Position numbers and translations under genes: made by a program
Source: Escherichia phage BrunoManser
Length of the DNA: 49,298 bases
Strand: one strand, 5' to 3'
Sequence record: MZ501053
The notes under the pieces: generated by a model
Told to the model about the DNA's origin: nothing
The model's input: only the letters and a program-made list of their open reading frames with translations
Databases searched by the model: none
Shown here: one piece after another, positions 1 through 46,322 of the stretch
Position numbering within the stretch: the first letter of the stretch is position 1
Layout: every line of letters begins with the position of its first letter

Positions 1-540
1 ATGTTAAACAGCGAGGACGAATCTATGAAACAGGAAAAAGCGCCCGTCGTTCAGGGTGGCAACTTTAAAGAGCTATACCGGAAAGAGTTCGGAACCGTGT
101 TAGGCAAAACGCGACAGACCACGCCGAAGCAGTTGTTTGATCTGGCGGTTAAGTATTTCGAATGGGCGGAAGACAACGCAATCAAAGCGGCTGAGACTGC
201 CAGTTTTCAGGGCGATGTAGAAGAGTCGTTAGTGCATAAGCCGCGAGTGTTTACCGTTACCGGGTTTAAGCTTTTCTGCAGCCTGAGCGACGGCACTATC
301 GCGCGATACCGATCCGAACCGGACTATGCCGAAGTTATGGAATTCGTCGATTCCGTTATCAATGAACAGAAATTCCAGCTTGCGGCAAACGGCATCATTA
401 ACGCTTCGTTTATCGGCAAGGACTTAGGCATCGACAAGCCAGCGTCGATTAACATCGACAACACGTCGAGCGCGGCGGCTGTTGCCACCACAGAAGACGC
501 GATGAAGGACGCGGTAAACAGCGTTCTTGATATGCTCTAA
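1..540 (+). CDS. putative terminase small subunit
   Basis: 179-aa ORF directly upstream of the large terminase gene; positional call, no diagnostic motif. ORF starts at window base 1, so its RBS/upstream region is not visible. Confidence 0.4.
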   Translation: MLNSEDESMKQEKAPVVQGGNFKELYRKEFGTVLGKTRQTTPKQLFDLAVKYFEWAEDNAIKAAETASFQGDVEESLVHKPRVFTVTGFKLFCSLSDGTIARYRSEPDYAEVMEFVDSVINEQKFQLAANGIINASFIGKDLGIDKPASINIDNTSSAAAVATTEDAMKDAVNSVLDML

Positions 541-581
541 CAGTTAACCGGGCGGCTAGTCCGCCCTATAGGATCACGATA

Positions 582-2153: not shown

Positions 2154-2166
2154 AGCGGGTATAATT

Positions 2167-2193
2167 AAGGCTGGAATTTTCCAGCCTTTTTTA
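2167..2193 (+). terminator. intrinsic terminator after terminase large subunit
   Basis: GGCTGGAATTTTCCAGCC hairpin followed by TTTTTT. Confidence 0.6.
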
Positions 2194-2209
2194 TTGGAGG
2201 AAAGACAGA

Positions 2210-3526
2210 ATGAAAATTGTAAAGCACGATGGGTATAACGAGATTTTCAACAACGGAGGCGACAACGCGCCGAAGCCGTTTTACGTCACCGGGGAGCAGT
2301 CTTACGGGTTGGGGTGGATGTACGAAAACAACGGGCTAGCGCGACGCATTATCGACGTTGTTCCAGAAGAAATGGTATCGCCCGGCTTTAAAGTATCAGG
2401 CGTGAAGGATGAAGCGGCGTTCCGGTCAGTGTGGGATGATCTGGAAATCGAAGGGCTAATCGTTGACGCGTTAGCGTGGCGTCGTCTGTATGGCGGTTCC
2501 GGTATCGTGGCGATTATCAACGACGGGCGCAAGCTTACTTCGCCAGCGAAAGAAGGAGGCGTACTGGAAGGGATCAGGGTTTACGATCGCGATCAGATTG
2601 CTATCGCGAAGAAGGAAACAAACGCGCGGAACGTCCGTTACGGCGAACCTGTCCTTTACGAAATTAGTCCGGGCGATGGTCTTACGCCGTATCAGGTTCA
2701 CTACACGCGAATCAAGATCCTAGACGGTGAACGACTCCCGCCACAACAGCGCAAGCGTAATAACGGATGGGGAGCACCATTCCTTAATAAGTCACTGATT
2801 GAAGCGATTTACGATTACGAATATTGCGAAGAACTAGCAACGCAACTTCTACGTCGTAAGCAACAGGCAGTATGGAAGGTAAAAGGGCTGGCGGAAATGT
2901 GCGACGACGACGACGCAGCTTACGCGGCGCGTTTGCGATTGGCACAGGTGGATGATAATTCCGGCGTAGGTAAGGCGATCGGCATTGACGCGAACGACGA
3001 AGAATACGAAGTGTTGAATTCTGACGTTAACGGCGTTTCTGAATTCCTGCAAAATAAGTTCGATCGTATTGTGTCGCTGTCCGGCATTCATGAAATCATC
3101 TTGAAAAACAAGAACGTCGGCGGAGTTAGTGCAAGCCAGAACACGGCGCTAGAAACGTTTTACAAGCTGATTGACCGACAGCGCGAAGAACATTACCGCC
3201 CGATCTTAGAATTCCTTTTGCCGTTCGTAATCCACGAAACGGAATGGTCTGTCGAGTTCGAGCCGCTTTCCATGCCTTCAGAGAAGGAAGCGTCCGAGAC
3301 TACGAAGAATCACGTTGAGTCTATCCGTGGCGCACTGGAAGATCAGATGATTGATTTAGAAGAAGCCCGCGACACGTTGCAATCTATCGCGCCGATGTTT
3401 AAGCTTAAAGACCTGAATCACGCGGAACTGAAGAAGCGCACCGAAGAGCAACAGAAAGTTGAAAAGGAACCGGGAGTCGGCGAGGTAATCAACGAGAACG
3501 AGGAAAACGGAAACGATGAAGATTAA
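2210..3526 (+). CDS. portal protein
   Basis: 438 aa, directly after terminase, strong RBS (GGAGGAAAG), acidic C-terminal tail; size and position typical of siphovirus portal. Confidence 0.6.
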   Translation: MKIVKHDGYNEIFNNGGDNAPKPFYVTGEQSYGLGWMYENNGLARRIIDVVPEEMVSPGFKVSGVKDEAAFRSVWDDLEIEGLIVDALAWRRLYGGSGIVAIINDGRKLTSPAKEGGVLEGIRVYDRDQIAIAKKETNARNVRYGEPVLYEISPGDGLTPYQVHYTRIKILDGERLPPQQRKRNNGWGAPFLNKSLIEAIYDYEYCEELATQLLRRKQQAVWKVKGLAEMCDDDDAAYAARLRLAQVDDNSGVGKAIGIDANDEEYEVLNSDVNGVSEFLQNKFDRIVSLSGIHEIILKNKNVGGVSASQNTALETFYKLIDRQREEHYRPILEFLLPFVIHETEWSVEFEPLSMPSEKEASETTKNHVESIRGALEDQMIDLEEARDTLQSIAPMFKLKDLNHAELKKRTEEQQKVEKEPGVGEVINENEENGNDED

Positions 3527-4280
3527 CGGAATCGCTAAAACGTGGCGCTTTCCTGAATCCAGCGAGCGACAATTAAGTCGCTCTATGGAACAATTTACGG
3601 GCGCGATTGTCGCCCGTATGCAGGAGAGTTTAAAGCCCATGAAATGGGATGCGGACGAAAGTCAGATCGAGCAGGTAGAGCGAAGCTTGCTTGACTACGC
3701 CGAAGATTTGTTGCAATCAATGTTCGCGGCACTTCCGGCGCTGGCGTTCACGATCTATAAGTTCAACGCTAAACAGTGGATTAAGATCGCAAAGAGTGCG
3801 GGAGGTTCGAAAAATCAGGCTGTTATGTTGCTTGTCCTGATTGGTGCTAATATTGGCGAAAGCTGGTACGCGCCACAGTACGATCTATGGGAAGCGCAGA
3901 CGAAAACATCATTACGAAAATTCGCGGCGAACATGATTACCGACTTCACCGGGAAGCTACGCGACGCGGCGGCGAATGGCTACGAAGCCGAGCGGGTTTA
4001 TGAAGAAACCAATCAGCGTTACAAGGTTTACTCTTCGTGGGCGCGTAACAGGGCATCCGGGATCGTGACTACATGGAACAGCCGAATGATGCGTCAACGC
4101 CTGAAGGATGCGCAAGTTACCCACTACTTCTGGCGCGGAATGATGGATTTACGCGAACGTGAAAAGCACGTAAAATGGGAGGGTAAGCGCATTCCGGTAA
4201 ACAGCAATCACATATTCCCCGGCGAGGAATACGGTTGCCGTTGCTGGGTTGTTCCAGATTTCAATCAGATAGGAGATTAA
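3516..4280 (+). CDS. head morphogenesis protein (Mu F / SPP1 gp7-like)
   Basis: 254 aa, overlaps portal stop; C-terminal segment KWEGKRIPVNSNHIFPGEEYGCRCW resembles the conserved motif of phage minor head/morphogenesis proteins. Confidence 0.55.
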   Translation: MKINGIAKTWRFPESSERQLSRSMEQFTGAIVARMQESLKPMKWDADESQIEQVERSLLDYAEDLLQSMFAALPALAFTIYKFNAKQWIKIAKSAGGSKNQAVMLLVLIGANIGESWYAPQYDLWEAQTKTSLRKFAANMITDFTGKLRDAAANGYEAERVYEETNQRYKVYSSWARNRASGIVTTWNSRMMRQRLKDAQVTHYFWRGMMDLREREKHVKWEGKRIPVNSNHIFPGEEYGCRCWVVPDFNQIGD

Positions 4281-4283
4281 TTA

Positions 4284-5390
4284 ATGGCAAAGCAAAGATT
4301 CGATAGCGTCAAGATCAAAGCCCACTTTGACGAACACGGCTTTTTAGTCGATCGCCCGGTTGTCGCCCGTATCGGCGCACAGACTTATAAAACACCATTC
4401 GGCGATCGCGTGGAATTCCGCCCGGCTTCCGAAGTGTTCGATCCTGAATCGCTGGCAACTTACGCGGGCAAGCCCGTAACAGTCGGTCACGTAACCGTAA
4501 CGCCTGAGAACGCGGAAAAGGTTGTCGTAGGTTCATGCGCTGGCGACGGTATCCCGAACGGCGTCGGCGTCGAAGTGCCTATGTCGATTTACAGCCAACG
4601 CGCGATCGAGAAGGCGAGGCGCAAAATGGCGGCGGAATTGTCTGTCGGGTACACGTCCGAAGATATCGAAAAACCGGGCTGGGGTTCGAACGAAACGGGC
4701 GAATACATCTTCGAAGAGGATATGAAAGAAAACGAAGTGATCCCGAAAGGCTGGGTTAAGTTCGACGCCGTACAGACAAAAATCCGCGTAAATCATGTTG
4801 CTATGGTATTCAAAGGTCGCGCAGGTATCGCTAAATTAAACCTTGATAGCGAACAAGAATTCCCGTATGATTACGACGTTAATTCAAACAAAGAGGATCA
4901 CGTAATGAAGAAAATTAAAATCGACTCCGTAGAAGTGGAAGTGCCGGAAAGTGTAGCGGCGCACATCGAAAAGCTTAACGGTGAAGTGGCAACTATTCAG
5001 GGCAAGGCCGACGGTCTGGAAGCGGAACGCGATTTACTGAAAACTAAAGTAGACGGCATTCCGGCGCTGATTACTGAAGCAGTAGAAAAGCACAAGGCCG
5101 ACGCCGCCGAACTTACCGCGCTGATTGCTACAGCTTCCGAAGCTGGCGTGAAGTGCGACGGTCTGGACGCTAAAGCGATCAAAGTTGCTTTCCTGAAAGC
5201 TGTTACCGGGAAGGACGTTTCCGCGAAATCTGACGCTTACATCGATAACGCCTTCGACTTCGCGAAAGATTGTGATAATATGGCGTCACAGCGTCAAAGC
5301 ATCAAAGGCGACGCAGCAAACGAACCAGGCAAGAAAGAAGACGAAGACGAAGTGACTCCGAATTCCCGCCTGAATAAACTTAACAAGTAA
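4284..5390 (+). CDS. putative scaffolding / prohead-associated protein (DUF2213-like)
   Basis: 368 aa; N-terminus MAKQRFDSVKIKAHFDEHGFLVDRP..., coiled-coil-like acidic C-terminal half; located between morphogenesis and capsid genes. Confidence 0.4.
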   Translation: MAKQRFDSVKIKAHFDEHGFLVDRPVVARIGAQTYKTPFGDRVEFRPASEVFDPESLATYAGKPVTVGHVTVTPENAEKVVVGSCAGDGIPNGVGVEVPMSIYSQRAIEKARRKMAAELSVGYTSEDIEKPGWGSNETGEYIFEEDMKENEVIPKGWVKFDAVQTKIRVNHVAMVFKGRAGIAKLNLDSEQEFPYDYDVNSNKEDHVMKKIKIDSVEVEVPESVAAHIEKLNGEVATIQGKADGLEAERDLLKTKVDGIPALITEAVEKHKADAAELTALIATASEAGVKCDGLDAKAIKVAFLKAVTGKDVSAKSDAYIDNAFDFAKDCDNMASQRQSIKGDAANEPGKKEDEDEVTPNSRLNKLNK

Positions 5391-5403
5391 GGAGATTTAA
5401 ATT

Positions 5404-5880
5404 ATGCCAATTGCAGCAAGCTACCAGAAAGATATGGCGATCGCGCTTCCGGGTATGGTTGCGGACACTTCCCGATATAACATTGACGGCGCGTGTGTCC
5501 TGAATGGTGACGTTGATATCCTTGTCGGCGTAGCGGTTCAAATCGACAGCGTTCAAGCGGTTGACGGTCACAAAGTCATGAAACCTATGGCGTCCGGCGG
5601 CGTTCCTTACGGTATCGCTATTCGTTCCCACTTCCAGACTAAAGGCAAAAACGGCCAGATGTATTACGAAGCTGGCGGCGGTCTTAACGTTATGACTTCC
5701 GGTCGCGTTTGGGTTATCTCTAAAGACTCCACCGCCCCGGCGTTCGGTACTCCTGTCAAGTTCGACGTTGACGGACAGCAGAAAGCAGACGGCGCGATCG
5801 AAACTACGTGGACTTACGCGGGCGGATTCACCACTTATCAAGATCTGAAGCTGGTAGAAATTCAGTTGATGCAACTGTAA
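5404..5880 (+). CDS. head protein paralog A (putative decoration/structural protein)
   Basis: 158 aa; shares DTSxYNIDGACV, VPYGIA and GRVWV blocks with the next ORF; strong RBS; terminator downstream. Confidence 0.45.
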   Translation: MPIAASYQKDMAIALPGMVADTSRYNIDGACVLNGDVDILVGVAVQIDSVQAVDGHKVMKPMASGGVPYGIAIRSHFQTKGKNGQMYYEAGGGLNVMTSGRVWVISKDSTAPAFGTPVKFDVDGQQKADGAIETTWTYAGGFTTYQDLKLVEIQLMQL

Positions 5881-5895
5881 TTAACCGTTAATATG

Positions 5896-5927
5896 GGGGC
5901 TATCCTTTTGGATAGTCCCTTTTTTTA
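5896..5927 (+). terminator. intrinsic terminator (imperfect stem)
   Basis: GGGGGCTATCC-TTTTG-GATAGTCCC followed by T7. Confidence 0.5.
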
Positions 5928-5942
5928 TGGAGGTAATAAAAT

Positions 5943-6725
5943 ATGTCAGATTACGGAAACGTCATTCTAAAAGCTTTTCCCGGCTGTCTTTCCGACACGT
6001 CGGACTATAACATCGATGGCGCTTGTGTTGTTGGCGGGCAGGGTGAAGGCTCAGGTGGAGAACACGTCTTTTCAGGTTGTGCAGTGTGGGTTGAGTCAGT
6101 AGATCCGGGCGGGCATAAAATCGTTCGTCAAAACCTGATTTCTACTCAAAACGTGCCATACGGGATCGCAATGACGCATCACTATGCGCCGCACGAATCG
6201 GCGGACGGTTACGCGATGTATAACGTAGGCGATGTGATTAACGTCGTAACGCATGGTCGCGTGTGGGTTTACGGTAACAATACGGATATTACGCCAACCT
6301 TCGGACAGCGCGTTCGGATTCAGACAAACGGCACTGTCGGCACTTCTGGAGGAACGCTGGTTAACTGGCGATTCACTGGCGGAAAAGTAATCATCAAGCC
6401 TAACGTTGCGATCTTTGAGGTGCAATTAGTTCAGGGTATTAACGCGTTTTTGGTTGTGCATGGTGGCGACATGGTAATTAACCCGAATTCAATCGAAGCG
6501 GGGGCAACCGTTCAGGCAAGATTAATCGCTATCACTCCAGCCGCACCGGATCGAACTGGCAAATTCTCTTCGGAAGACGAAGGCGTCGCGACGGTAGATC
6601 AGGATACAGGCTTAATCACTGGCGTAGCGGCTGGAACGACTAACATCGTGTGGACAGCTAACGATTCCGGCAAGTACACGATCACGCGCCCGATTACCGT
6701 CACGGAAGCGCCGCCCGCACCATAA
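5943..6725 (+). CDS. head protein paralog B with C-terminal Ig-like (Big_2-like) domain
   Basis: 260 aa; N-terminal 130 aa paralogous to 5404-5880; C-terminal ~80 aa (GVATVDQDTGLITGVAAGTTNIVWTANDSGKYTITRPITV) resembles bacterial Ig-like domains common on capsid decoration proteins. Confidence 0.45.
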   Translation: MSDYGNVILKAFPGCLSDTSDYNIDGACVVGGQGEGSGGEHVFSGCAVWVESVDPGGHKIVRQNLISTQNVPYGIAMTHHYAPHESADGYAMYNVGDVINVVTHGRVWVYGNNTDITPTFGQRVRIQTNGTVGTSGGTLVNWRFTGGKVIIKPNVAIFEVQLVQGINAFLVVHGGDMVINPNSIEAGATVQARLIAITPAAPDRTGKFSSEDEGVATVDQDTGLITGVAAGTTNIVWTANDSGKYTITRPITVTEAPPAP

Positions 6726-6746
6726 CATAAAAACAGTTTGACGCTT

Positions 6747-6761
6747 TAACAAAAAGTGCTA
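6747..6761. promoter_or_regulatory. palindrome TAACA-N5-TGCTA (module family)
   Basis: TTTAACAAAAAGTGCTA in leader of major capsid gene, followed by hairpin. Confidence 0.5.
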
Positions 6762-6764
6762 TCA

Positions 6765-6791
6765 TAAAGCCGTTATCAATTAACGGCTTTT
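6765..6791 (+). terminator. hairpin with short U-tract upstream of major capsid gene
   Basis: AAAGCCGTTA-TCAAT-TAACGGCTTTT. Confidence 0.4.
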
Positions 6792-6814
6792 CACCAATAA
6801 GAGGAAATGAAAAC

Positions 6815-7792
6815 ATGGCTAAAAAATATGATGAATTCGAAGCTTCCGTCGTTGCTAATCACCTGCAAATGCGCGGCACTAAAGCGGACGCCGACACGTT
6901 AGGTATTTGGACGGCGCAAGAACTTAATAAGCTGAAGTCGCAGTCTTACGAAAAGGATTACCCGGCTGGCTCCGCACTTCGCGTTTTCCCGGTTACGTCT
7001 GACCTTTCCCCGGTTGATAAAACCTTCGAATATCAGACTTTTGATAAAGTCGGTATCGCGCAAATTATCGCCGACTACACTGATGATTTGCCGCTGGTAG
7101 ATGCAATGGCATCAAGCGAATTCGGTAAAGTCTTCCGCCTGGGTAATGCGTATCTGATTTCTATTGACGAAATCAAAGCAGGTCAAGCGACTGGTAAGTC
7201 TCTGTCGAATCGCAAAGCGAACGCGGCACAGCTTGCGCATGATCAGCTTGTCAACCGTCTGGTCTTCAAAGGTTCCGCACCGCACAAAATCGTAAGCGTG
7301 TTCAATCATCCGAACATCACGAAGATTACGTCTAAGGGCTGGACTTCTACCACTGGCGGCGTTACTACTAAACTGCCAGCGAACGCAGAAGAAGAATTGA
7401 CCACAGCAATCGAAACTATCGAAACGCTGACTATGGGCGCACACCGCGCGACTCACATTCTGATTCCGCCGTCTATGCGTAAAGTTCTGACCGTTCGCAT
7501 GACCGACACTACCGAAAGCTATCTAGAATACTTCCAGAAGCAAAACAGTAATATTACCATCGAAGCTATCGCGGAGTTGGAAGATATCGACGGCTCAGGC
7601 ACTAAAGGCGCATTAGTTTACGAATACGATCCGATGAATATGTCTATCGAGATCCCGGAAGCGTTTAACATGCTGCCAGCGCAGCCGAAAGACCTGCATT
7701 TCAAAGTGCCTTGCACTTCTAAATGTACTGGCCTGACAATCTACCGTCCGTTGACGATTGTCCTGATTACCGGGCTTGCAGTTACCGAATAA
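6815..7792 (+). CDS. major capsid protein
   Basis: 325 aa, strong RBS (AAGAGGAAATGA), position after scaffold/decoration genes, followed by a strong hairpin terminator. Confidence 0.6.
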   Translation: MAKKYDEFEASVVANHLQMRGTKADADTLGIWTAQELNKLKSQSYEKDYPAGSALRVFPVTSDLSPVDKTFEYQTFDKVGIAQIIADYTDDLPLVDAMASSEFGKVFRLGNAYLISIDEIKAGQATGKSLSNRKANAAQLAHDQLVNRLVFKGSAPHKIVSVFNHPNITKITSKGWTSTTGGVTTKLPANAEEELTTAIETIETLTMGAHRATHILIPPSMRKVLTVRMTDTTESYLEYFQKQNSNITIEAIAELEDIDGSGTKGALVYEYDPMNMSIEIPEAFNMLPAQPKDLHFKVPCTSKCTGLTIYRPLTIVLITGLAVTE

Positions 7793-7805
7793 TTGCCTTA
7801 ATATA

Positions 7806-7832
7806 GGGACTCATTAATTGAGTCCCTTTTTA
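7806..7832 (+). terminator. intrinsic terminator after major capsid gene
   Basis: GGGACTCA-TTAAT-TGAGTCCC followed by TTTTT. Confidence 0.65.
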
Positions 7833-7851
7833 TTATCAGGAGTAAACAAAA

Positions 7852-8154
7852 ATGGCTAAAGCACCTAAAGCAAAATCTGAAGTAACCGAATCCGGCAAAG
7901 TGGGAATCATCAATACTGGCGTAGCGCTGATTTTCATTGACGGCGAAAAGCTTATGCCGGGCGATGAAATGGAAGTGTCCGCCGAACTTCTGAAGACTTC
8001 AGGCATTGAATATCTGTTCGGGCAAGGCGCGTTAGAAATCAAAGACGACCGCGACGCAACCGACGAAATTCGCGAACGAATGGCGGCACGACGCAAGCAA
8101 GATCCTACCGCTGGCAAGTCACAAAAAGAACTTGAAGACGGCGGCGAATTCTAA
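7852..8154 (+). CDS. hypothetical structural protein
   Basis: 100-aa ORF with RBS (CAGGAG), between two terminator hairpins in the head module. Confidence 0.45.
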
Positions 8155-8162
8155 ACCGAGTC

Positions 8163-8186
8163 CGGGCGCTATATGCGCCCTTTTTC
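8163..8186 (+). terminator. intrinsic terminator
   Basis: GGGCGC-TATAT-GCGCCC followed by TTTTT. Confidence 0.6.
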
Positions 8187-8204
8187 ATATCTGGAGGTAA
8201 CGAA

Positions 8205-8618
8205 ATGTCAGAAGATGAATTGCAAGAAGTCTACGCGATTCTTGTCGCGCTGGCTCCGCCAATGCAGAATATTAACCCGACACAAATCAAAGTTTGGATC
8301 GACCTTGCAAGCGATTACGTTTGCAAATCGAAATTCAAGTCGCGCTATCATAAAGCTGTCGCACTGTATGCGCTTCATTTGATGGTATTGGATGGGGCAA
8401 TGAAGCAGGGAACCGAAAGCGTAGAATCAATGACGCGCCGTGTAACGTCATTTTCCCTGAGCGGTGAATTTTCGCAAACGTTCGGCGATGTATCGAAGAC
8501 GACTTCGAATGATGTTCTTGAACAAACGCCGTGGGGCAAAATGTACCGGGCTTTACTCCGCAAGAGTGGCGGCGGTATGGGTTTAATGACAGGACTTCGT
8601 AGGGGGTGCGGAAGATGA
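8205..8618 (+). CDS. putative head-tail connector/adaptor protein
   Basis: 137 aa, RBS GGAGG, first of four overlapping small neck-region ORFs; positional call. Confidence 0.4.
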
Positions 8619-8992
8619 ACTATGCAGCGTTGCAAAAGTTAGCGAAGGACGGGATCGGCTTTTTTGCTGATCCTATGCTGGGCGGTGGCGAATGTACGTT
8701 GATTCGTGGCGGCTGCGTAACGATGGTTAACGGCGTCGAAGTTGTGCAGCCGGAAGAGGTGTTAACCATTCAGGGAGTTATCCGGGATATTCAGGCGCGT
8801 GACGTTAACGGCGACACTATACGGGCAGACGATAAGCGCGGAATCTTCACCTTTGAAGAATATATCAATAAAGGAAACTGGATCGTGGTTGAAGGCGTGA
8901 AGTATGAAGTTGTAGACCCGCGACCGATCAAACCGTCCGGGACTGTCGTCGCATACCGCCCGATTTTGCGAAGGGTGGCTCTGTATGGCTAA
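8606..8992 (+). CDS. putative head closure / head-tail joining protein
   Basis: 128 aa, overlaps neighbours; positional call. Confidence 0.4.
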
Positions 8993-9428
8993 CTATCAGG
9001 TGCGGCAATTTCACGCGTCAATCGACGCGTGGATTAAAGCGGCTAGGAACGGATTAGAAGACACATTGCGAATCTTCATTGAAGAGGTTCACAAGGCGTT
9101 AGTAATGGGTTCTCCGGTCGATACAGGGCGATTTAGGGCTAACTGGCAGATAACTTTTAACGCTCCGCCTATGTACGCTCTAAACCAATATGATAAATCA
9201 GGCGGACAAACGATCGCATACGGGAAGCGTGTAGCCAGCGTGTTCACTCTTCGACGTGGCGCGGCTATAACGTCAATCTATTTTTCTAACATGCTGATTT
9301 ACGCTAATGCGCTGGAGTACGGGCATTCGAAACAAGCCCCGGCTGGCGTCGTTGGCGTGGTGGCAATTCGCCTTCGCTCTTTCATGGCGGACGCGATCAG
9401 ACAATCGAGGGCTAAAAATGCACTATGA
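8985..9428 (+). CDS. putative neck/tail component
   Basis: 147 aa, overlapping start/stop with neighbours; positional call. Confidence 0.4.
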   Translation: MANYQVRQFHASIDAWIKAARNGLEDTLRIFIEEVHKALVMGSPVDTGRFRANWQITFNAPPMYALNQYDKSGGQTIAYGKRVASVFTLRRGAAITSIYFSNMLIYANALEYGHSKQAPAGVVGVVAIRLRSFMADAIRQSRAKNAL

Positions 9429-9828
9429 TCTAGCAGTTGCGGCGCGTAATGAATTAAGCAACTTCATTAATAGCGCCCCGGAATATGTTTTTCCTGTTGC
9501 TTACGAAAGTGTGCCGTTCGATCCTCCCGCTGATGGTTCTACGTGGCTGAAGTTCGACTACAAAGAAGCGGACACAGTATTCGTCGGGTTGTCCCGCAAA
9601 TGCAAATACGCGGTTGGAATGGTTCAGATCTCTATCCACTTCGCGCCGGGTTTGGGAATGGATAAAGTTAGAATGTTAGCGCGTGATATTGCGGAATTTT
9701 TCGAAGATGGTAAAATGCTGATTAACGATTGTTATATCGTAGACGGTGGAAAAGTTCACCCGATACAAAAATCTGTCGGCGGCTGGTCTTATCCCGTCCG
9801 ATTCTATGTTCGTAAAGACAAAAAATAA
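9418..9828 (+). CDS. putative tail completion/terminator protein
   Basis: Start moved to internal ATG (MHYDLAV...) that overlaps the upstream stop; tool ORF 9307-9828 begins further upstream in an overlap. Confidence 0.4.
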   Translation: MHYDLAVAARNELSNFINSAPEYVFPVAYESVPFDPPADGSTWLKFDYKEADTVFVGLSRKCKYAVGMVQISIHFAPGLGMDKVRMLARDIAEFFEDGKMLINDCYIVDGGKVHPIQKSVGGWSYPVRFYVRKDKK

Positions 9829-9840
9829 GGAGTTACAATT

Positions 9841-10497
9841 ATGCACCTTCCTAATGGTTCACAAATTTTTATCGGTTCCACGCTGGGCGCTGAGATCGAG
9901 GCAACCAACGTTTCAAACGCTGCCGATCCGGTCTTCTCTGTTGCGTCAACTTCCGGCGTAACTGTCGGTCAATATGTGTTAGTTACTTCCGCCGCGTGGG
10001 GGCGTCTTCTGGATCGCGTCCTTCGTGTTAAGGCTGTATCCGAAGATGTAAGCGTAACGCTTGAGGGTATCGACACTACCAACGCGAACGTATTCCCAAC
10101 AGGCACTAACCCGGCTTCGTTCCGACCTGTTACCGCATGGACTGAGATCCCTTGCGTACAGGATATCGGGCAGGACGGCGGCGAGCAGCAGTATTACACT
10201 TACCAGTGCCTTTCTGACGATCAGGAACAGCAGTTACCGACCTTCAAATCTGCCGTGTCGCTTACTTACAGCTTCGCGCACGAATTTGATAACGCGATTT
10301 ACCCGATCCTTCGCGGTCTGGACGAATCCGGCGAAGTAACGCCGCTTCGAATGTTCGTTCCGAAGGCTAAAGAAATGCGCCTTTGGGCTGGGGTTCTGTC
10401 GTTTAACGATATCCCACAAACGCAGGTAAACGAGATGGAAACTGTTTCTTTGTCCGTTTCCCTGAAAGGTAAATTTACTTACCTTGCATCCGAATAA
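9841..10497 (+). CDS. major tail (tube) protein
   Basis: 218 aa, strong RBS (AAGGAG), directly upstream of tail chaperone and tape measure genes; terminator/promoter hairpin downstream. Confidence 0.55.
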   Translation: MHLPNGSQIFIGSTLGAEIEATNVSNAADPVFSVASTSGVTVGQYVLVTSAAWGRLLDRVLRVKAVSEDVSVTLEGIDTTNANVFPTGTNPASFRPVTAWTEIPCVQDIGQDGGEQQYYTYQCLSDDQEQQLPTFKSAVSLTYSFAHEFDNAIYPILRGLDESGEVTPLRMFVPKAKEMRLWAGVLSFNDIPQTQVNEMETVSLSVSLKGKFTYLASE

Positions 10498-10506
10498 CAT
10501 CACTCC

Positions 10507-10530
10507 GGGGAAGCTTGCTTCCCCTTTTTC
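10507..10530 (+). terminator. intrinsic terminator after major tail gene
   Basis: GGGGAAGC-TTGC-TTCCCC followed by TTTTT; overlaps -35 of downstream promoter. Confidence 0.6.
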
Positions 10531-10543
10531 TTTTCTGTAGAAT
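10515..10543 (+). promoter_or_regulatory. sigma70-like promoter (TTGCTT-N17-TGTAGAAT, extended -10) overlapping terminator
   Basis: -35 sits in the 3' arm of the terminator hairpin; extended -10 TGTAGAAT. Confidence 0.45.
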
Positions 10544-10572
10544 CATCGTATCAAATCGGCTCGACGCTGTTT

Positions 10573-10587
10573 TAGCAATTCGTGCTA
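10573..10587. promoter_or_regulatory. palindrome TAGCA-N5-TGCTA
   Basis: TTTTAGCAATTCGTGCTA between promoter -10 (10538) and RBS of tail chaperone gene, i.e. in the transcribed leader. Confidence 0.55.
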
Positions 10588-10609
10588 TTACCTATCAGGA
10601 GAATCAACA

Positions 10610-10924
10610 ATGGCTAAATTCAAAATTACTTTGGGCGCACTGCCTGACTTCGCACTACCCGTAAAATTCATCATGCCGAACGGCGACGAAGCGAAAATCA
10701 CTTTCAAAGTGAAGCATCGCCCGTCTAACGAAGTGCAGGAGCTTTACGATCGACAAGATATCAAAGACCACGATTTCATTATGGAATTGGCTTCCGGCTG
10801 GGATCTGGAAGAAGAGTTTAATCAAGAAAACGCCGAAATGCTTGTCCGCTACTATCCGGGCGCGGCGCTGGCTCTTACGTCAACCTACCTTCGAGCGCTG
10901 GCAGGGCAACGCGTAAAAAACTAA
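10610..10924 (+). CDS. tail assembly chaperone (G-like)
   Basis: 104 aa, immediately upstream of tape measure; ends with slippery A_AAA_AAC before stop. Confidence 0.6.
   Translation: MAKFKITLGALPDFALPVKFIMPNGDEAKITFKVKHRPSNEVQELYDRQDIKDHDFIMELASGWDLEEEFNQENAEMLVRYYPGAALALTSTYLRALAGQRVKN
10915..10921 (+). other. candidate -1 programmed ribosomal frameshift site (A_AAA_AAC)
   Basis: Heptamer X_XXY_YYZ in zero frame two codons before the stop of ORF 10610-10924; -1 frame continues into ORF 10942-11241. Confidence 0.5.
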
Positions 10925-10941
10925 AGCGGGCGGTTTATCTG

Positions 10942-11241
10942 ATGTACCAGAAACCGCCCACAGATGAAGAGTTAAGATCTGTCGGCCTGTCCCGTTCTGA
11001 CTACGAAGGAGAGGAACCGGAAATACTTTATTTCCCTGAAGACATGATCCAATCGTATGACGTGTTTTGTGCGATGGGTACGCAGTGGAGAAGCGCTGGC
11101 GCTGGGGCTTATGGTCTTGATTATAATGTTTTGCCTATGTTGTTCAAAATCTATAAAATAGACGATGAAGAGCAGGTGTTAAACGATATTCGTGTTATGG
11201 AACAGAAAGCATTAGAAATGATGCACCATAACAGCAAATAA
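10942..11241 (+). CDS. tail assembly chaperone extension (GT-like, probably made by -1 frameshift from 10610-10924)
   Basis: 99-aa ORF in the -1 frame relative to upstream ORF; that frame is open back through the slippery heptamer at 10915-10921. Confidence 0.5.
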   Translation: MYQKPPTDEELRSVGLSRSDYEGEEPEILYFPEDMIQSYDVFCAMGTQWRSAGAGAYGLDYNVLPMLFKIYKIDDEEQVLNDIRVMEQKALEMMHHNSK

Positions 11242-11265
11242 GCGCCTTCGGGCGCTTTTCTTTTA
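11241..11265 (+). terminator. intrinsic terminator before tape measure gene
   Basis: GCGCC-TTCG-GGCGC followed by TTTTCTTTT. Confidence 0.55.
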
Positions 11266-11282
11266 TCTGGAGGTAATCACAT

Positions 11283-13988
11283 ATGGCGGAACAATACGCG
11301 GGATTGTCGCTAGGTGTTGACGTATCGCAAGTCGATCGGGCTGTAAAGTCTCTTCGTGAATTTGCGAAGGCGAACGACGGCGCGGCGGACTCGACCCATG
11401 AATTTCTAAATCAAACGGAAGTTGCGAAACAGAAGGCAAAGGATCACGCGCGTGAACTGTCGAAACAGGCGAGGGAATATTCCAACGTTGTAGCGGCTAT
11501 CGATCCCACAGTCAAGAGCATGAACCGCTTACGCGAAACGGCGAAGCAGTTAGACGCACTTTGGAAAAAAGGCGTCGTACCGGACGACGAATTCTTCCGG
11601 CTTGGCGAAGTTCTGGAATCGCAAGAGGTTGCATTGCGCAAGAATCAGCAAGCGTTAACGGCTGAAGGTCGAGCGGCGGCGGAAGCATCACGCCAGAAGG
11701 AGGCGGCAACGAAGGCCGGGCAAAACTTCATCAAGAGCTTAGAACAGCAAGCCTTATTCGCTGGCAAGACGGCGCAAGAAGTTTTAGAACTGAAGGCCGC
11801 GCAATTAGGCGTAAGCGAACAGGCCGCGCCATTTATCGCGCAGTTGAATAATCAGGCGAAGGGTTTAAAACTGGCTGGCGTTTCTGCCGGGCAATATGCG
11901 CAAGCAATGCGAATGCTTCCGGCGCAGATTACGGACGTTGTAACGTCGCTTGCTTCCGGTATGCCTGTTTGGTTGGTAGCAATCCAGCAGGGCGGACAGA
12001 TTAAAGACAGCTTCGGCGGGCTGGGTAATACGTTCAAAGTTCTGTTGTCTTTCCTGAATCCGCTTAACGTCGGATTGGGCGTTACGGTTGGGGCGCTGGG
12101 AGCACTGATTTATAAGGTTGTCAGTACCCGCAACGAGATCAAGGAAACTCAATCCGCAGTCAATACCCAGCTTGGTATTACTGGCGATTACGCTGATCGG
12201 TTGTCCTTGAACATTATGGGGATCGCGAAAGCCGCCGACCAATCAGCAGACGAAGTAATCAAAGCTTTCATTTCGACGAAAGACGGCGCGGAAGAGTCGT
12301 TACAGAAAATGCTAGACGTCGGGATCAGCTACGACGAAGCGCGACAGCGTGTCGAGCAGTACAAGAAATCGGGCGATTTCACGGCGCTAAACGTTGACAT
12401 TGAACAGCACCGATTAAAGGTTCTGGAAATCAAAGACGCGTGGAGCGATGCGGCGGAAGAGGTGAGGAACTATTACACCGGGGCAAATGAAGGGAAACAG
12501 TCTGTCGCGCTGGGTGGTGCGGTTGATCCGATCGTCAAAGTTCTGGAACAGGCCAAAACGCTTAATCAGCAAGTCAACACGGCGCGAATCGAAGGTAACA
12601 AGCATGTAGCGAAAACCATCGATTTGATTAACAAAGAGTATTTAGCGGCGGATCGTGTCGCAGGGGCTGAGAAGGCATTAGCCGACGCGAGAAAGAACGC
12701 CAACGCGATCGCGGCGTCCGGCAATAAAGAAGCAATCGCCAACGCTCAAAAGTTAATCAAGATTCGTGAAGACGAAGTGAAACAGGCGAAGGAGGCGGAG
12801 AAGAAGAAAGGCACTAAGGGCGGCAAGAAAGGTTCTGGCGGTATCACGCGAGCACCTACCGAGCAACTCGACAAAGAGCTTTACGTGCTTCAGGCGCAGT
12901 TAGTGACGCTGCAAAAACACGCCAGCATTAACGATCGCATTTCGCAACAGCGTAAAGCGCTATGGGCTGTCGAAGGACAGATTCAGGTTCTGGAGGAAGC
13001 GCAATCCACGCGCAAATTAACCAATGCGGAACAGGCGTTATTACTGGAACAGAAACAGGTACTAGCCCGCGCACAGCAGAAAGCCGAATTAGGCGATCAG
13101 ATTGCGCAGCAGGAAAAGCTAAACCAGTTGAATCAAGATTCCGTTAAATTCGTATTGCAAATGGATCAAGCAACGAAGACGCTAAACGATACGCGAAGCA
13201 TGGGCGCACTTGCGGCACAACGTGAAGCGGAACGCCAGAAGATGCAAGCGGATTGGTTAGCGAAAGGCGGAAGTCTTGAGGAAGACACGTTCAAGCGTAT
13301 GCAGGAAGCGCAAGAAAAATACTACGCAGCCGAAGACGAAAAGCGCGGAGATTGGCTAGCGGGGGCGCAATCTGCATTTGCCACCTACGGCGAAGAAGCA
13401 ACAAACATGTATGATAATGTAGGCAACATTGCTTCGAATGCACTGTCGGGAATGTCCGATATGATGGCGGAATTCCTCATGACCGGGGAGGCGAACTTCG
13501 CAGATTTCGCTAAGAGCATCATTAGCCAGATTATCCAGATGATTACTAAGATGGTAATCTTCAATTCGATTTCTGGTATGATGGGCGGCTCTACGTGGAG
13601 TTTTGCGGGCGGGTTTGCTAACGGCGGTTATACCGGGAACGGCGGCAAGTACGAACCGAAAGGCGTAGTGCACGGCGGCGAATTCGTATTCACGAAGGAG
13701 GCGACAAGCAGGATCGGGGTTGGCAACCTAAACCGACTCATGCGGGGTTATGCGAACGGCGGTTCGGTTGGCAATGCTTCGCGCGGAACAGGGTTAACGC
13801 TTTCGAGCGGTGGCGCTGGCGCTGGGAGCTATATCGACGTTAGCGGGATGAAAGTCGATGTGAATAACGGCAACGACCCGAAAGGGCTTGAGCAGGGCAT
13901 TCGTATGATCTGCAACGAAATGATTAACGAATCGTTTTCACAAGGTGGCAAGGCTTACACCTACATTATGGAAAAAACAGGAGGCTAA
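11283..13988 (+). CDS. tail tape measure protein
   Basis: 901 aa, largely coiled-coil (A/E/K/Q-rich), Gly-rich C-terminal region, position after chaperones. Confidence 0.85.
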   Translation: MAEQYAGLSLGVDVSQVDRAVKSLREFAKANDGAADSTHEFLNQTEVAKQKAKDHARELSKQAREYSNVVAAIDPTVKSMNRLRETAKQLDALWKKGVVPDDEFFRLGEVLESQEVALRKNQQALTAEGRAAAEASRQKEAATKAGQNFIKSLEQQALFAGKTAQEVLELKAAQLGVSEQAAPFIAQLNNQAKGLKLAGVSAGQYAQAMRMLPAQITDVVTSLASGMPVWLVAIQQGGQIKDSFGGLGNTFKVLLSFLNPLNVGLGVTVGALGALIYKVVSTRNEIKETQSAVNTQLGITGDYADRLSLNIMGIAKAADQSADEVIKAFISTKDGAEESLQKMLDVGISYDEARQRVEQYKKSGDFTALNVDIEQHRLKVLEIKDAWSDAAEEVRNYYTGANEGKQSVALGGAVDPIVKVLEQAKTLNQQVNTARIEGNKHVAKTIDLINKEYLAADRVAGAEKALADARKNANAIAASGNKEAIANAQKLIKIREDEVKQAKEAEKKKGTKGGKKGSGGITRAPTEQLDKELYVLQAQLVTLQKHASINDRISQQRKALWAVEGQIQVLEEAQSTRKLTNAEQALLLEQKQVLARAQQKAELGDQIAQQEKLNQLNQDSVKFVLQMDQATKTLNDTRSMGALAAQREAERQKMQADWLAKGGSLEEDTFKRMQEAQEKYYAAEDEKRGDWLAGAQSAFATYGEEATNMYDNVGNIASNALSGMSDMMAEFLMTGEANFADFAKSIISQIIQMITKMVIFNSISGMMGGSTWSFAGGFANGGYTGNGGKYEPKGVVHGGEFVFTKEATSRIGVGNLNRLMRGYANGGSVGNASRGTGLTLSSGGAGAGSYIDVSGMKVDVNNGNDPKGLEQGIRMICNEMINESFSQGGKAYTYIMEKTGG

Positions 13989-13991
13989 TCA

Positions 13992-14345
13992 ATGGCGACG
14001 CTGGACGAATTTACATGGTGTACACAAATTCAGAATAGCGGCGGAGCAATGACTACCGAGAACAACGACAGGGAAGTCGTTTTCGGTAACGGCTACAAGC
14101 AAGTTGCATCGTCTGGATTTAACACTGAGCGCCGGGAGTTTACGATCGTATACGCTGGCAATGATTGGAAGGCGGTTAAGGCGTTTTGTACCGGGCATCG
14201 ACTGAAGCCGTTTTTATGGCTTCCGCCAGATGAACAGCTAGGCTTGTTCATTGTGAAGTCAGGTTCGGTTGCGCTCACCCCGATCGCGCCGGGATTGAAC
14301 GAAATACGCGCTACGTTTTCCGAACAGTTTACATCTATGGAATAA
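13992..14345 (+). CDS. minor tail protein (lambda gpM-like)
   Basis: 117 aa, immediately after tape measure; lambda-like M-L-K-I-J order. Confidence 0.6.
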   Translation: MATLDEFTWCTQIQNSGGAMTTENNDREVVFGNGYKQVASSGFNTERREFTIVYAGNDWKAVKAFCTGHRLKPFLWLPPDEQLGLFIVKSGSVALTPIAPGLNEIRATFSEQFTSME

Positions 14346-32045: not shown

Positions 32046-32074
32046 TTCACACCCGTAATAGCTTTCACTATCAT
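32046..32074 (+). promoter_or_regulatory. candidate sigma70 promoter (TTCACA-N17-TATCAT)
   Basis: Upstream of the HTH-metallophosphoesterase gene. Confidence 0.3.
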
Positions 32075-32105: not shown

Positions 32106-33239
32106 ATGTCAACTGCAAAAATCACAACCGAACAGCTTATCGAAGAGCGTAGCAACGGCCTAACCCTTCGCGAGATCGCAGAAAAATACGGTATGCACAT
32201 TCGCACCGTCGAAGCGCGTCACGCTAAGTTAGCGAAAGAAGGTCACTTCCACGGCAACGCTCACGTAGCGGCCAACGTCCCGACAGGCTTCGCGGTCAAA
32301 GGTACTTCGACAATGATTCGTGCGGACGGTTCCGAAGTCGTTCGTTGGGTTAAGACCGATCAGGACAAAGAAAAGATTTACGAACTAATGAAGGCGGCAC
32401 AAATCGCATTTTGTGAAGACCTTCCGCGAGCGACGCCAAGCGACGCAACGCCGAACACTGAAGAAAGCTTGCTTGCGCTTTACCCGGTATTCGATCTTCA
32501 TATCGGCGCGTTAGCCCATAAACACGAATCCGGCGAAAACTATTCTACTGATATCGCCGAAGAAGTGTTGAACAAGTATTTCGACTACGCCGTAACCGTA
32601 GCGCCTGAAGCCAAAAAAGCCGTACTGTTAATCGGTGGTGACTTCCTGCATAGTGACGGTCTGGACGCAGTTACCCCGGCAAGCGGTCACGTTCTGGATC
32701 AAGATTCACGCTATGCAAAACTGGTTTACGTGGCAATCCGGGCAACGCGCCGCGCGATCTCAAGAATGCTTGAGAAACACGAAGAAGTCGAAGTGCAAAT
32801 CATTGAAGGCAACCACGATCAAGCCGGAATGATTTGGCTACGCGCTGCAATGGCGGCATATTACGACGACGAACCGCGCGTCTATGTCGATGTTAGCCCG
32901 ATGATTCTACATAAAACGAAGTGGGGTAAAACGCTTTTGGGTTACACTCACGGTCACACGATGAAGAAAGCCGACACGCGTTTAGCTGCTATGGCGGCGG
33001 ACTTCCGCGAAGAGTTCGGCGACAGCAAATACGTATACACGCATAGCGGACATTGGCATCATCAAACAATCACCGAGCACACGCTAGGGATTGACGAAGT
33101 ACACGGACAGCTAGGCGCTAAAGACGCTTACGCGGCGCGGGGCGGCTGGAGAGCATACCGACAAGCGGCGGTTATCGTGTACGACAAAAAATTCGGCGAA
33201 GTTGGGCGCTTCATCTACCGCCCGGAAATGACCGAATAA
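32106..33239 (+). CDS. metallophosphoesterase (calcineurin/Mre11-like motif set) with N-terminal HTH region
   Basis: 377 aa; motifs DLHIG, GGDFLHSDG, GNHD, THGH, GHWHH in canonical order; N-terminal ~45 aa LTLREIAEKYGMHIRTVEARHAKLAKEG looks helix-turn-helix. Confidence 0.5.
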   Translation: MSTAKITTEQLIEERSNGLTLREIAEKYGMHIRTVEARHAKLAKEGHFHGNAHVAANVPTGFAVKGTSTMIRADGSEVVRWVKTDQDKEKIYELMKAAQIAFCEDLPRATPSDATPNTEESLLALYPVFDLHIGALAHKHESGENYSTDIAEEVLNKYFDYAVTVAPEAKKAVLLIGGDFLHSDGLDAVTPASGHVLDQDSRYAKLVYVAIRATRRAISRMLEKHEEVEVQIIEGNHDQAGMIWLRAAMAAYYDDEPRVYVDVSPMILHKTKWGKTLLGYTHGHTMKKADTRLAAMAADFREEFGDSKYVYTHSGHWHHQTITEHTLGIDEVHGQLGAKDAYAARGGWRAYRQAAVIVYDKKFGEVGRFIYRPEMTE

Positions 33240-33255: not shown

Positions 33256-33313
33256 AAGACAAACGCGGGGTAACGAGTTATAGTTACCCCATCAAAACAA
33301 AGGAGATAGACAA

Positions 33314-33421
33314 ATGAAAGACTTCATCATCAAAACCGTAGTACCTTTCTTTGCTGGCGTAGCTGTTACCGGGTTCTTCTTGTGGGTTCTGTCTTTAGCT
33401 GGCAACTTCAACGGATTTTAA
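33314..33421 (+). CDS. small hydrophobic protein (35 aa), possible lysis-associated membrane peptide
   Basis: Not in ORF track (<60 aa); strong RBS AAGGAG; single TM-like segment (VVPFFAGVAVTGFFLWVLSLAG); downstream of palindrome module. Confidence 0.3.
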   Translation: MKDFIIKTVVPFFAGVAVTGFFLWVLSLAGNFNGF

Positions 33422-33431
33422 GGAAAACAAC

Positions 33432-33608
33432 ATGACTCGCGTTAAGTGTATTCGCAACGACTCTAAATCTTTACCGTTCCACGTTAACGAAATCTATTCG
33501 ATCGGCTATCACCACGGCGGCGGGATTTATGAGATCTACGACGGCAAAGGATCGGCAATTCAAGCGCCGCTAAACGGACATTATCTTGAATTCGTTGTTG
33601 TCAAATAA
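33432..33608 (+). CDS. hypothetical small protein (58 aa)
   Basis: Manual ORF with RBS-like AAGGAAAACAACATG; not in ORF track. Confidence 0.3.
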   Translation: MTRVKCIRNDSKSLPFHVNEIYSIGYHHGGGIYEIYDGKGSAIQAPLNGHYLEFVVVK

Positions 33609-40767: not shown

Positions 40768-40860
40768 AAAATTTGAGCAATCCTAAGAGCTGGCCGATTT
40801 AGCGCTAACTATATGATATATATAATAATAATAAGTTTTAAATTAGCTTTTATATAGTAG
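40768..40860 (+). repeat. AT-rich direct repeat, copy B
   Basis: AAAATTTGAGCAA...GCGCTAACT...ATATATATAATAATAATAAG...TTTTAAATTAGCTTTTATAT; same orientation as copy A, 19.3 kb away. Confidence 0.55.
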
Positions 40861-41053
40861 AAATACTGTTGTATATAGGGCGTGTCACTAATGTATAAGG
40901 TGTAAGGGTGAGATTCGGTATATTGAGGATTTCTGGTTATATATACAGTACATTAGGAGGCAGACCCATAAATATCTCTATAGGTGCTTACATCTAATAC
41001 ATCTTATACAGGGGCGATTACGTAGTTGTGACGCGCGTCCTTGCTGGATTGTG

Positions 41054-41810: not shown

Positions 41811-42107
41811 ATGAACAACTTTACCCGCACTGAATTTCAACACGCCTTCGCCGTCAACGTTCAAGCGATGCAGGGCTATCAAAAGCGCTTTGTCGCATTC
41901 GTTACCGCGCTTGGATTCAAACAAGCCTACGAAGGCACTGTAGCGGCACGTAACGCGCGTTTCATGGCATGGATTGGCGAACGTAAGGCCGACTTCGTGA
42001 AAGCGCATGATGAGCATGTACAGCGTGATTATTGCACTGGATATTACCGCATCCTAAGCGATGAAGCGTACACCGATTTTATTGTGTCGGGCGAATGGAT
42101 TAAATAG
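41811..42107 (+). CDS. hypothetical protein
   Basis: Start set to ATG after the conserved leader CATCGACAACGAAAACAG; tool ORF starts at 41775. Confidence 0.4.
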   Translation: MNNFTRTEFQHAFAVNVQAMQGYQKRFVAFVTALGFKQAYEGTVAARNARFMAWIGERKADFVKAHDEHVQRDYCTGYYRILSDEAYTDFIVSGEWIK

Positions 42108-45720: not shown

Positions 45721-45779
45721 GTTAAGAAGACGCAGAAACGCGGCAAAAATCAGGCTGAAAAATGGGAAGGGTTACGATA

Positions 45780-46322
45780 ATGAAGATTAACGCATACGGA
45801 AGAGAATTTCGCACTAACGCGCCGTCCGGGATGATTTGTATTTTTGATTACGACGGTACTTTGTCAGACGGAACGCACCGCTTGCACCTGCTACCGAAAA
45901 CCGATCTTCACTTAACTGAAAGTTGGAGCGAGTTTAACCGGGCGGCAATCTTCGACACACCGATTACCAACACGATCGCGGTAATGAATGCGATGTATGC
46001 AGCCGGGCATTGTGTAATCATCCTAACCGGGCGAAGCGATGAAGTCGAAAAGGAGTCGCGCGAATGGCTGGCGAACCACAACGCGAAATATGATTTCCTG
46101 ATCATGCGCCGCCACGACGACAACCGGAAGGATACGGTAATCAAAGAAGAGATTTTGCGCGAAATCGGGTTGCATCGCATTTTAGCGGCGTGGGATGATA
46201 GCCCTTCAGTTATTCCACACTTTAGGAATATTGGAATAACAACCTATGCCGTGACCGACTACGGCGACAATGTACATTCACACCTGAAATCACACGGAGT
46301 AGACACACTATGCAAAAAGTAA
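45780..46322 (+). CDS. HAD-superfamily phosphatase (DxDGT motif)
   Basis: N-terminal ICIFDYDGTLSDG matches HAD motif I (DxDGT), as in polynucleotide 3'-phosphatases/nucleotidases; start chosen at ATG with AAGGG RBS. Confidence 0.5.
   Translation: MKINAYGREFRTNAPSGMICIFDYDGTLSDGTHRLHLLPKTDLHLTESWSEFNRAAIFDTPITNTIAVMNAMYAAGHCVIILTGRSDEVEKESREWLANHNAKYDFLIMRRHDDNRKDTVIKEEILREIGLHRILAAWDDSPSVIPHFRNIGITTYAVTDYGDNVHSHLKSHGVDTLCKK

Follow-up and report, generated by a model that had tools for sequence, protein, structure and literature searches.

The 49,298-nucleotide (nt) sequence of Escherichia phage BrunoManser (MZ501053; this whole stretch is referred to below as the window) contains, at 32106..33239 on the + strand, a gene for a 377-amino-acid (aa) protein in which a helix-turn-helix (HTH) segment precedes a metallophosphoesterase domain. 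The locus raises the question of what a phosphoesterase carrying its own DNA-binding module does for a phage, for which an initial annotation, made from the DNA alone, had proposed DNA processing, degradation of cyclic-nucleotide signals or regulation. Of these, DNA processing was found to fit best, and neither cyclic-nucleotide degradation nor pure regulation gained specific support. With slightly better than even confidence, we consider the protein to be a nuclease tethered to DNA and acting in phage DNA metabolism. The features described within the gene all lie on the + strand.

The ORF at 32106-33239 is a real gene of what is a T1-like coliphage. It runs from ATG to TAA in the open reading frame (ORF) listing, an AGGA ribosome-binding site lies approximately 10 nt 5' of the start codon, and the alignment of first residues in homologs supports the start. 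The complete gene is further supported by PHROG 704 and by orthologs in Escherichia phage SRT8, a 49.6-kb T1-like siphophage (99.7% amino-acid identity), and in phage T1, where the gene 16 product (ST16, YP_003929.1) shares 71% identity over all 377 aa. Judged by this full-length alignment, the protein is the ortholog of T1 gene 16. Like the gene in the window, T1 gene 16 is preceded by the Dam methylase block and followed by the lysis cassette, and no substantive difference was seen between the two proteins. The match to PHROG 704, named 'DNA repair exonuclease', covered residues 4-376 and positions 2-389 of the 390-position profile (E = 8e-155), and distant homologs were likewise assigned to this group; the same label on T1 gp16 is a purely bioinformatic annotation.

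The C-terminal part, residues 119-377 (32460..33236), has the alpha/beta sandwich of calcineurin-like metallophosphoesterases and contains the ordered motif series of this superfamily (DxH / GDxx[DH] / GNH[DE] / H / GHxH), far above chance. The series had been proposed in this order initially, and its metal-binding residues, whose loss from an alignment would have spoken against an enzyme, turned out to be conserved. Conservation was scored over 150 divergent representatives of 50%-identity clusters. Motif I, D130-L-H132-I-G134 (DxHxG; 32493..32507), is retained in 148, 148 and 145 representatives at its three numbered positions, respectively. Motif II, G178-D179-F-L-H182 (32637..32651), had been read as GDxxD-like and is actually GDxxH, a Mre11-like variant, with G178 and D179 found in all 150 and H182 in 147. 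Motif III, G235-N236-H237-D238 (GNHD; 32808..32819), keeps N236 and H237 in 149/150, motif IV, H282-G283-H284 (32949..32957), keeps H282 in 150/150 and G283 in 147/150, and motifs V/VI, G315-H316-W-H318 (GHxH; 33048..33059), keep H316 in 142/150 and H318 in 149/150. The metal ligands D130, H132, D179, N236, H237, H282, H316 and H318 are thus each retained in 142-150 of the 150 representatives, and the same residues are invariant or nearly so across an alignment of 48 sequences with 31-67% identity to the query; selection therefore keeps the enzyme active. A family-specific loop separates motif II from motif III, T190-P-A-S-G-H195-V-L-D198-Q-D200-S-R202 (32673..32711), in which T190 (148/150), D198 (147/150), R202 (144/150), D200 (136/150) and H195 (114/150) are conserved. 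The AlphaFold model has a predicted local distance difference test score (pLDDT) below 50 across residues 184-200, and the loop is possibly a substrate lid.

Standard domain profiles recognize this domain only at the margin. The gathering thresholds of Pfam Metallophos and Metallophos_2 were not reached by the query (Metallophos_2 16.8 bits, cut-off 27), and Pfam and NCBIfam searches with the query protein alone gave sub-threshold matches only, while Metallophos and Metallophos_2 were matched by 13 and 11 of the 48 homologs, respectively, at E ≤ 0.01. A PDB search with the single sequence returned nothing, even at E ≤ 10. By these comparisons the HTH-metallophosphoesterase family is a divergent clade, a deep and isolated branch of the metallophosphoesterases.

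The N-terminal ~100 aa had been described as containing an HTH-like segment. The HTH is real, both by fold and by the Pfam matches of homologs, but it spans only approximately residues 8-56 (32127..32273; helices 8-16, 21-28, 32-44 and 52-56), the rest of this region being a beta-hairpin (62-71, 77-86) followed by a helix (88-105), placed by the secondary structure of the models (32274..32420). A DNA-binding fold for the N-terminus was upheld by profile searches: homolog N-termini matched Sigma70_r4_2 (1.5e-9), GerE (2.4e-8) and HTH_8 (1.8e-6). For the query by itself Pfam is unconvincing, with 16.2 bits against HTH_23, below the cut-off of 24.6. Fold comparison found a tri- or tetra-helical HTH of the LuxR/GerE or sigma-70 region 4 type, and AlphaFold models show its four helices, with pLDDT 74-92 over residues 1-60 in a model of the N-terminus. 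Since the alignment of homologs lacking the HTH begins at about residue 57-66, residues 57-105 form part of the conserved family core, and two hairpin residues, W81 (142/150) and K83 (120/150), are near-invariant. A variable linker, residues 106-118 (32421..32459; pLDDT 54-59), in which alignment gaps fall, connects this core to the phosphoesterase domain. The first 60 residues are ~90% identical to T1 gp16, the other 317 residues ~67% (32106-32285 compared with T1 40822-41001), which suggests either recombination at the level of modules inside the gene or a stronger constraint on the DNA-binding part.

Initially, a DNA-binding phosphoesterase had been regarded as unusual. This does not hold, because the same architecture is found in thousands of relatives and is near-universal in T1-like phages, where T1 gene 16 is already annotated. 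Matches by tblastn were obtained in 2041 phage records, including phages of Escherichia, Klebsiella, Salmonella, Vibrio, Campylobacter, Flavobacterium, Rhodobacter and others, and homologs formed 4631 clusters at 50% identity (E ≤ 1e-3). A scan of bacterial genomes with an 8-sequence alignment yielded 64 loci, which appear to be prophages and belong mainly to proteobacteria. In Drexlerviridae, a module containing the HTH-metallophosphoesterase is persistent in 508 of 522 phages (PMC13164509). Among 133 representatives in which the core is complete, 131 are extended N-terminally by 35 residues or more, and 120 of these 131 extensions could be linked to the HTH by an iterated profile. The exceptions include a ParB-like domain (P0222, with a DGHHR motif) and N-termini resembling zinc ribbons of the CxxC...CxxC type (P0217, P0262). 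It thus seems that the DNA-binding module has been exchanged while the phosphoesterase core behind it stayed the same, and, as different nucleic-acid-binding modules occupy one position, the enzyme is likely directed to DNA. Taken as a whole, these assignments indicate a family that is already known and catalogued, with a function given by annotation only.

The surroundings of the gene were compared between the window and other loci. In the window, a helicase, a VRR-NUC nuclease and a Dam methylase are followed by four small ORFs, the HTH-metallophosphoesterase, a small SH3 protein, holin, endolysin and spanin. Phage T1 and Tunavirus SH2 share this order of helicase, VRR-NUC, Dam methylase, small ORFs, the gene itself and the lysis genes. 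Elsewhere, too, its usual place is at the end of the replication and recombination region, just before lysis or terminase genes. The clearest example is a lambdoid prophage of Pseudomonas fluorescens HK44 (contig 440-14000), where CI, O, P, NinB, NinG and two small ORFs precede the HTH-phosphoesterase, which is followed by a 181-aa protein (PHROG 3412), a holin and, at a greater distance, TerS and TerL. The gene thus closes a nin-like block of recombination and repair genes. We take this position to be the ninI/Q slot of the lambda map, and no recognisable Q antiterminator was present among the HK44 prophage ORFs examined. In a Campylobacter myophage, genes for a Holliday-junction resolvase and for a DNA ligase come before an HTH-less homolog; Pectobacterium phage PEAT2 has the gene between its primase block and its terminase, and Jerseyvirus has it as a small island within the tail block, on the opposite strand. 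A census of PHROG assignments, covering same-strand ORFs of at least 100 aa within 4 kb on either side, gave terminase large subunits (at least 14 loci), HNH endonucleases and portal proteins downstream, together with the nucleotide-metabolism families nucleoside deoxyribosyltransferase, HD phosphohydrolase and deoxynucleoside monophosphate (dNMP) phosphatase; upstream it gave endolysins, holins, spanins, tail fibres, NinB and dNMP kinase. What recurs is a setting of DNA replication, recombination and nucleotide metabolism that borders on the late genes. One further candidate role, that of a substitute for the small terminase subunit, was ruled out by the ordinary TerS found beside TerL in both the HK44 prophage and the phage of the window.

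Because the metal ligands are kept, the N-terminus has a DNA-binding fold, the context is DNA metabolism and a precedent exists in A10ZJ24 gp48, a phage metallophosphoesterase that is a DNase degrading host DNA (PMC12287305), we favour the DNA-tethered nuclease. Genes of nucleotide salvage close to the gene at other loci support the DNA-metabolism context. In such a mechanism, the HTH, and perhaps also the hairpin bearing W81 and K83 with the adjoining helix, would hold the protein on DNA, and the flexible linker would then present the metallophosphoesterase domain. We infer that a two-metal centre, probably with Mn2+ or Mg2+, would hydrolyse phosphodiester bonds of DNA in the manner of Mre11/SbcD, the enzyme working alone and needing no ATPase partner of the Rad50/SbcC type. 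It would be one of the accessory DNA-metabolism functions encoded last in the replication and recombination block, equivalent to the nin region of lambda, and could process DNA ends or branched intermediates in recombination-dependent replication, break down host DNA for nucleotide salvage, or both.

Several results weigh against this assignment. The similarity between family profiles and Mre11/SbcD of Thermotoga maritima was non-significant (E = 0.2-1.6), and the model of the whole protein reaches only medium quality (pLDDT 73.9). Close to the presumed active site, three conserved loops, residues 138-145, 184-200 and 336-352, have low confidence in the model; the same loops would be good candidates for substrate contacts. 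A search for a partner gene, based on all-vs-all BLAST clustering of the ORFs from 69 loci, yielded no conserved neighbour, as no ORF cluster beyond the gene itself was shared by more than 12 of the 67 loci. Furthermore, the searchable literature on T1 gp16 and the Drexlerviridae metallophosphoesterases gave annotation-level mentions only, with no biochemical or genetic data.

The same DNA-binding module could instead belong to a sequence-specific regulator, or 'trigger enzyme', whose HTH binds an operator or promoter and times the late lysis and packaging genes while the phosphoesterase senses or modulates. The LuxR/sigma-70 region 4 type of HTH is typical of transcription factors, and the high identity of the first 60 residues to T1 gp16 relative to the rest of the protein would agree with such a role. 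The placement would agree as well, given that the gene lies directly before the lysis cassette in Drexlerviridae, is followed by terminase or head genes in many prophages and takes the ninI/Q slot in the lambdoid prophage, and that no PHROG named as an antiterminator was among the 25 most frequent neighbour families of the census. We still regard a regulator as unlikely, since the near-invariant catalytic residues point to selection for an activity that would be superfluous in a pure regulator. Moreover, some members carry ParB-like or zinc-ribbon modules in place of the HTH, or have none, and the gene position varies, as the opposite-strand island in Jerseyvirus illustrates. The HK44 position also bears on the proposal of a protein phosphatase that would be the counterpart of lambda NinI (lambda phosphatase): the gene there follows NinG and precedes the holin, a slot that corresponds to the location of ninI in lambda, and NinI is, like the query, a member of the metallophosphoesterase superfamily. 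NinI, a Ser/Thr phosphatase, is however of a different subfamily, and neither the motifs of PPP protein phosphatases (GDxHG / GDxVDRG / GNHE) nor close structural similarity to them was found in the query, and we consider this function very improbable.

An enzyme acting on small molecules was also considered, namely a nucleotide or cyclic-nucleotide phosphodiesterase that remodels the nucleotide pool or counters defence by degrading immune signalling nucleotides. Fold scores are compatible with such an enzyme. The DNA-binding N-terminal module of ~90% of the representatives examined would, however, be purposeless for it, and the variants of motifs I and II match Mre11/SbcD; in addition, no PADLOC model matched and no link to anti-defence was found in the literature for the family, so that this function seems improbable. 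Very improbable, in our estimate, is an end-healing role, in which a 3'-phosphoesterase or 2',3'-cyclic phosphodiesterase like the module of Clostridium thermocellum Pnkp would act on damaged DNA or RNA ends. In its favour are the 'polynucleotide kinase' gene found immediately after this gene in some Drexlerviridae (PMC13164509), the DNA ligase gene adjoining the Campylobacter phage homolog and weak sub-threshold matches to PdeM/MPE; the PdeM similarity is non-significant, though, and T1 has no annotated ligase. The window itself encodes, at 45762-46322 (+), a protein 61% identical to T1 ST64, which is annotated as 'polynucleotide kinase' and, like its homolog here, carries a D-x-D-G-T motif. 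We take DxDGT to be the motif of the HAD 3'-phosphatase domain of T4 Pnkp and not of its kinase domain, for which reason the ST64 annotation may be misleading and a 3'-phosphatase may already be encoded elsewhere. The idea that the metallophosphoesterase supplies a missing Pnkp 3'-phosphatase is weakened accordingly.

A more specific proposal can be formulated, which we consider speculative and rather improbable. The protein would be a sequence-directed DNA processor that acts like a switch where early genes give way to late ones, taking, in phages with no known late regulator, the place that belongs to Q/NinI in lambdoid genomes. It could be a site-specific nuclease or nickase whose defined target lies in the DNA of the phage, the host or a competitor. 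Alternatively, it could be a dual-function protein in which an enzymatic fold is coupled to the control of another DNA transaction, like Bxb1 gp47, which is reportedly also an excision directionality factor and needed for replication.

The sequences flanking the gene were inspected for transcription signals. A sigma-70-like promoter candidate at 32046..32074 (+), TTCACA-17-TATCAT with 10/12 matches, lies 32 nt before the start codon; it is a consensus match only and weak, as promoter-like sites in the scanned region did not exceed the shuffled expectation. A GC-rich hairpin, CGGGGTAAC-N8-GTTACCCC, is found at 33266..33291, 27 nt past the stop codon. It has no T-run on the + strand, leaving a role as terminator uncertain. 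In T1, an annotated terminator (41980-42007) follows gene 16 at the position equivalent to this hairpin, and the HTH-metallophosphoesterase gene may for this reason be its own transcription unit.

Two small ORFs lie between the gene and the holin. The first, at 33316-33423 of the window (+), encodes 35 aa (MKDFIIKTVVPFFAGVAVTGFFLWVLSLAGNFNGF) and is shorter than the threshold of the ORF listing. It has a good ribosome-binding site (aaaggaga), and its very hydrophobic product, encoded between the phosphoesterase and SH3 genes just before the lysis cassette, is probably a small membrane protein. The second, at 33432-33608 (+), is the SH3 gene, with a stand-alone SH3-like product of 58 aa (Pfam DUF7244, E = 7e-30; PHROG 4788). 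Proteins of this type are an accessory part of Drexlerviridae lysis modules, found in 188 of 522 phages (PMC13164509, 2026).

Copies of gp16 were also found in records of unrelated organisms. A 46.7-kb contig assigned to Nitratidesulfovibrio liaohensis (NZ_VSMK01000220.1), part of a Desulfovibrio-type assembly, contains a 67%-identical gp16 homolog together with a T1-type helicase and endolysin, and the 25-kb record MG065685.1, 'Campylobacter phage A112a', contains a 59%-identical copy. These sequences are probably contamination by T1-like phages, which are reputed to be laboratory contaminants.

The gene is a persistent core gene of the T1-like phages (Drexlerviridae), with relatives in thousands of phages and prophages. 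T1-type phages do not encode a DNA polymerase and may rely on recombination and on nucleotides from the host. If the protein is indeed a DNA-tethered, Mre11-like nuclease that works without Rad50, it would fill a gap in the DNA handling of these phages and clarify a gene named only by analogy. The domain logic, a DNA-binding module joined to a nuclease-type fold, is an expected one and does not constitute a new kind of system.

The protein was compared to known metallophosphoesterases. Structural neighbours comprised the Pol delta B-subunit (11.9), MJ0936 (11.8), the PolD DP1 exonuclease (11.7), SbcD (11.4), Mre11 (10.3-10.9), Lmo2642, GpdQ and Rv0805 (about 10) and, with lower values, PPP protein phosphatases (about 7). 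PolD DP1 and the eukaryotic polymerase B-subunits share 7-13% sequence identity with the query and have an OB fold, whereas none was detected in the query, the N-terminus of which is formed by the HTH and hairpin. PolD DP1 furthermore has a polymerase partner, while no DNA polymerase is annotated in T1. The Pseudomonas putida enzyme MPE/PdeM (6nvo), a ligase- and Lhr-associated nuclease, is likewise a small stand-alone metallophosphoesterase from a DNA-repair context; the weak matches to it (TIGR04123 E = 0.004, 16.5 bits against a cut-off of 150; 6nvo E = 0.35) cover motif III only, and its architecture and gene context are unlike those of the query. Closer in setting are Bxb1 gp47 and A10ZJ24 gp48 of the cluster A mycobacteriophages, which are also stand-alone phage metallophosphoesterases encoded in an early DNA-metabolism region. 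In contrast to the query, these proteins have 255 aa and no HTH. Membership of the same family was rejected, as they belong to PHROG 221 and not 704 and hhalign gave a probability of 13.7%, a resemblance confined to the superfamily, so that they serve as an analogy and are not relatives.

A further comparison is to Mre11/SbcD. The alignment with the T. maritima enzyme crosses motif I (tDaHlGm in the family, sDwHLGv in the enzyme) and motif II (lGDllH and tGDLLH, respectively), and DxHLG in motif I with GDLxH in motif II are the Mre11/SbcD variants. The motif variants and the structural neighbours thus point weakly to Mre11/SbcD-type nucleases. Mre11/SbcD proteins (T. maritima 3qg5 and 2q8u; Staphylococcus aureus SbcD 7dog) have a capping domain, which the query lacks, as the strands of the sandwich reach residue 370 of 377. 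They also have a Rad50/SbcC partner, whereas none is annotated in T1 or SH2 and none was present in the neighbour clusters or the PHROG census. The N-terminal HTH, the beta-hairpin and the TPxSGHxLDxDxR loop are additions of the query. On these similarities and differences, the protein appears to resemble a nuclease-type metallophosphoesterase and would best be kept separate from Mre11/SbcD when it is filed.

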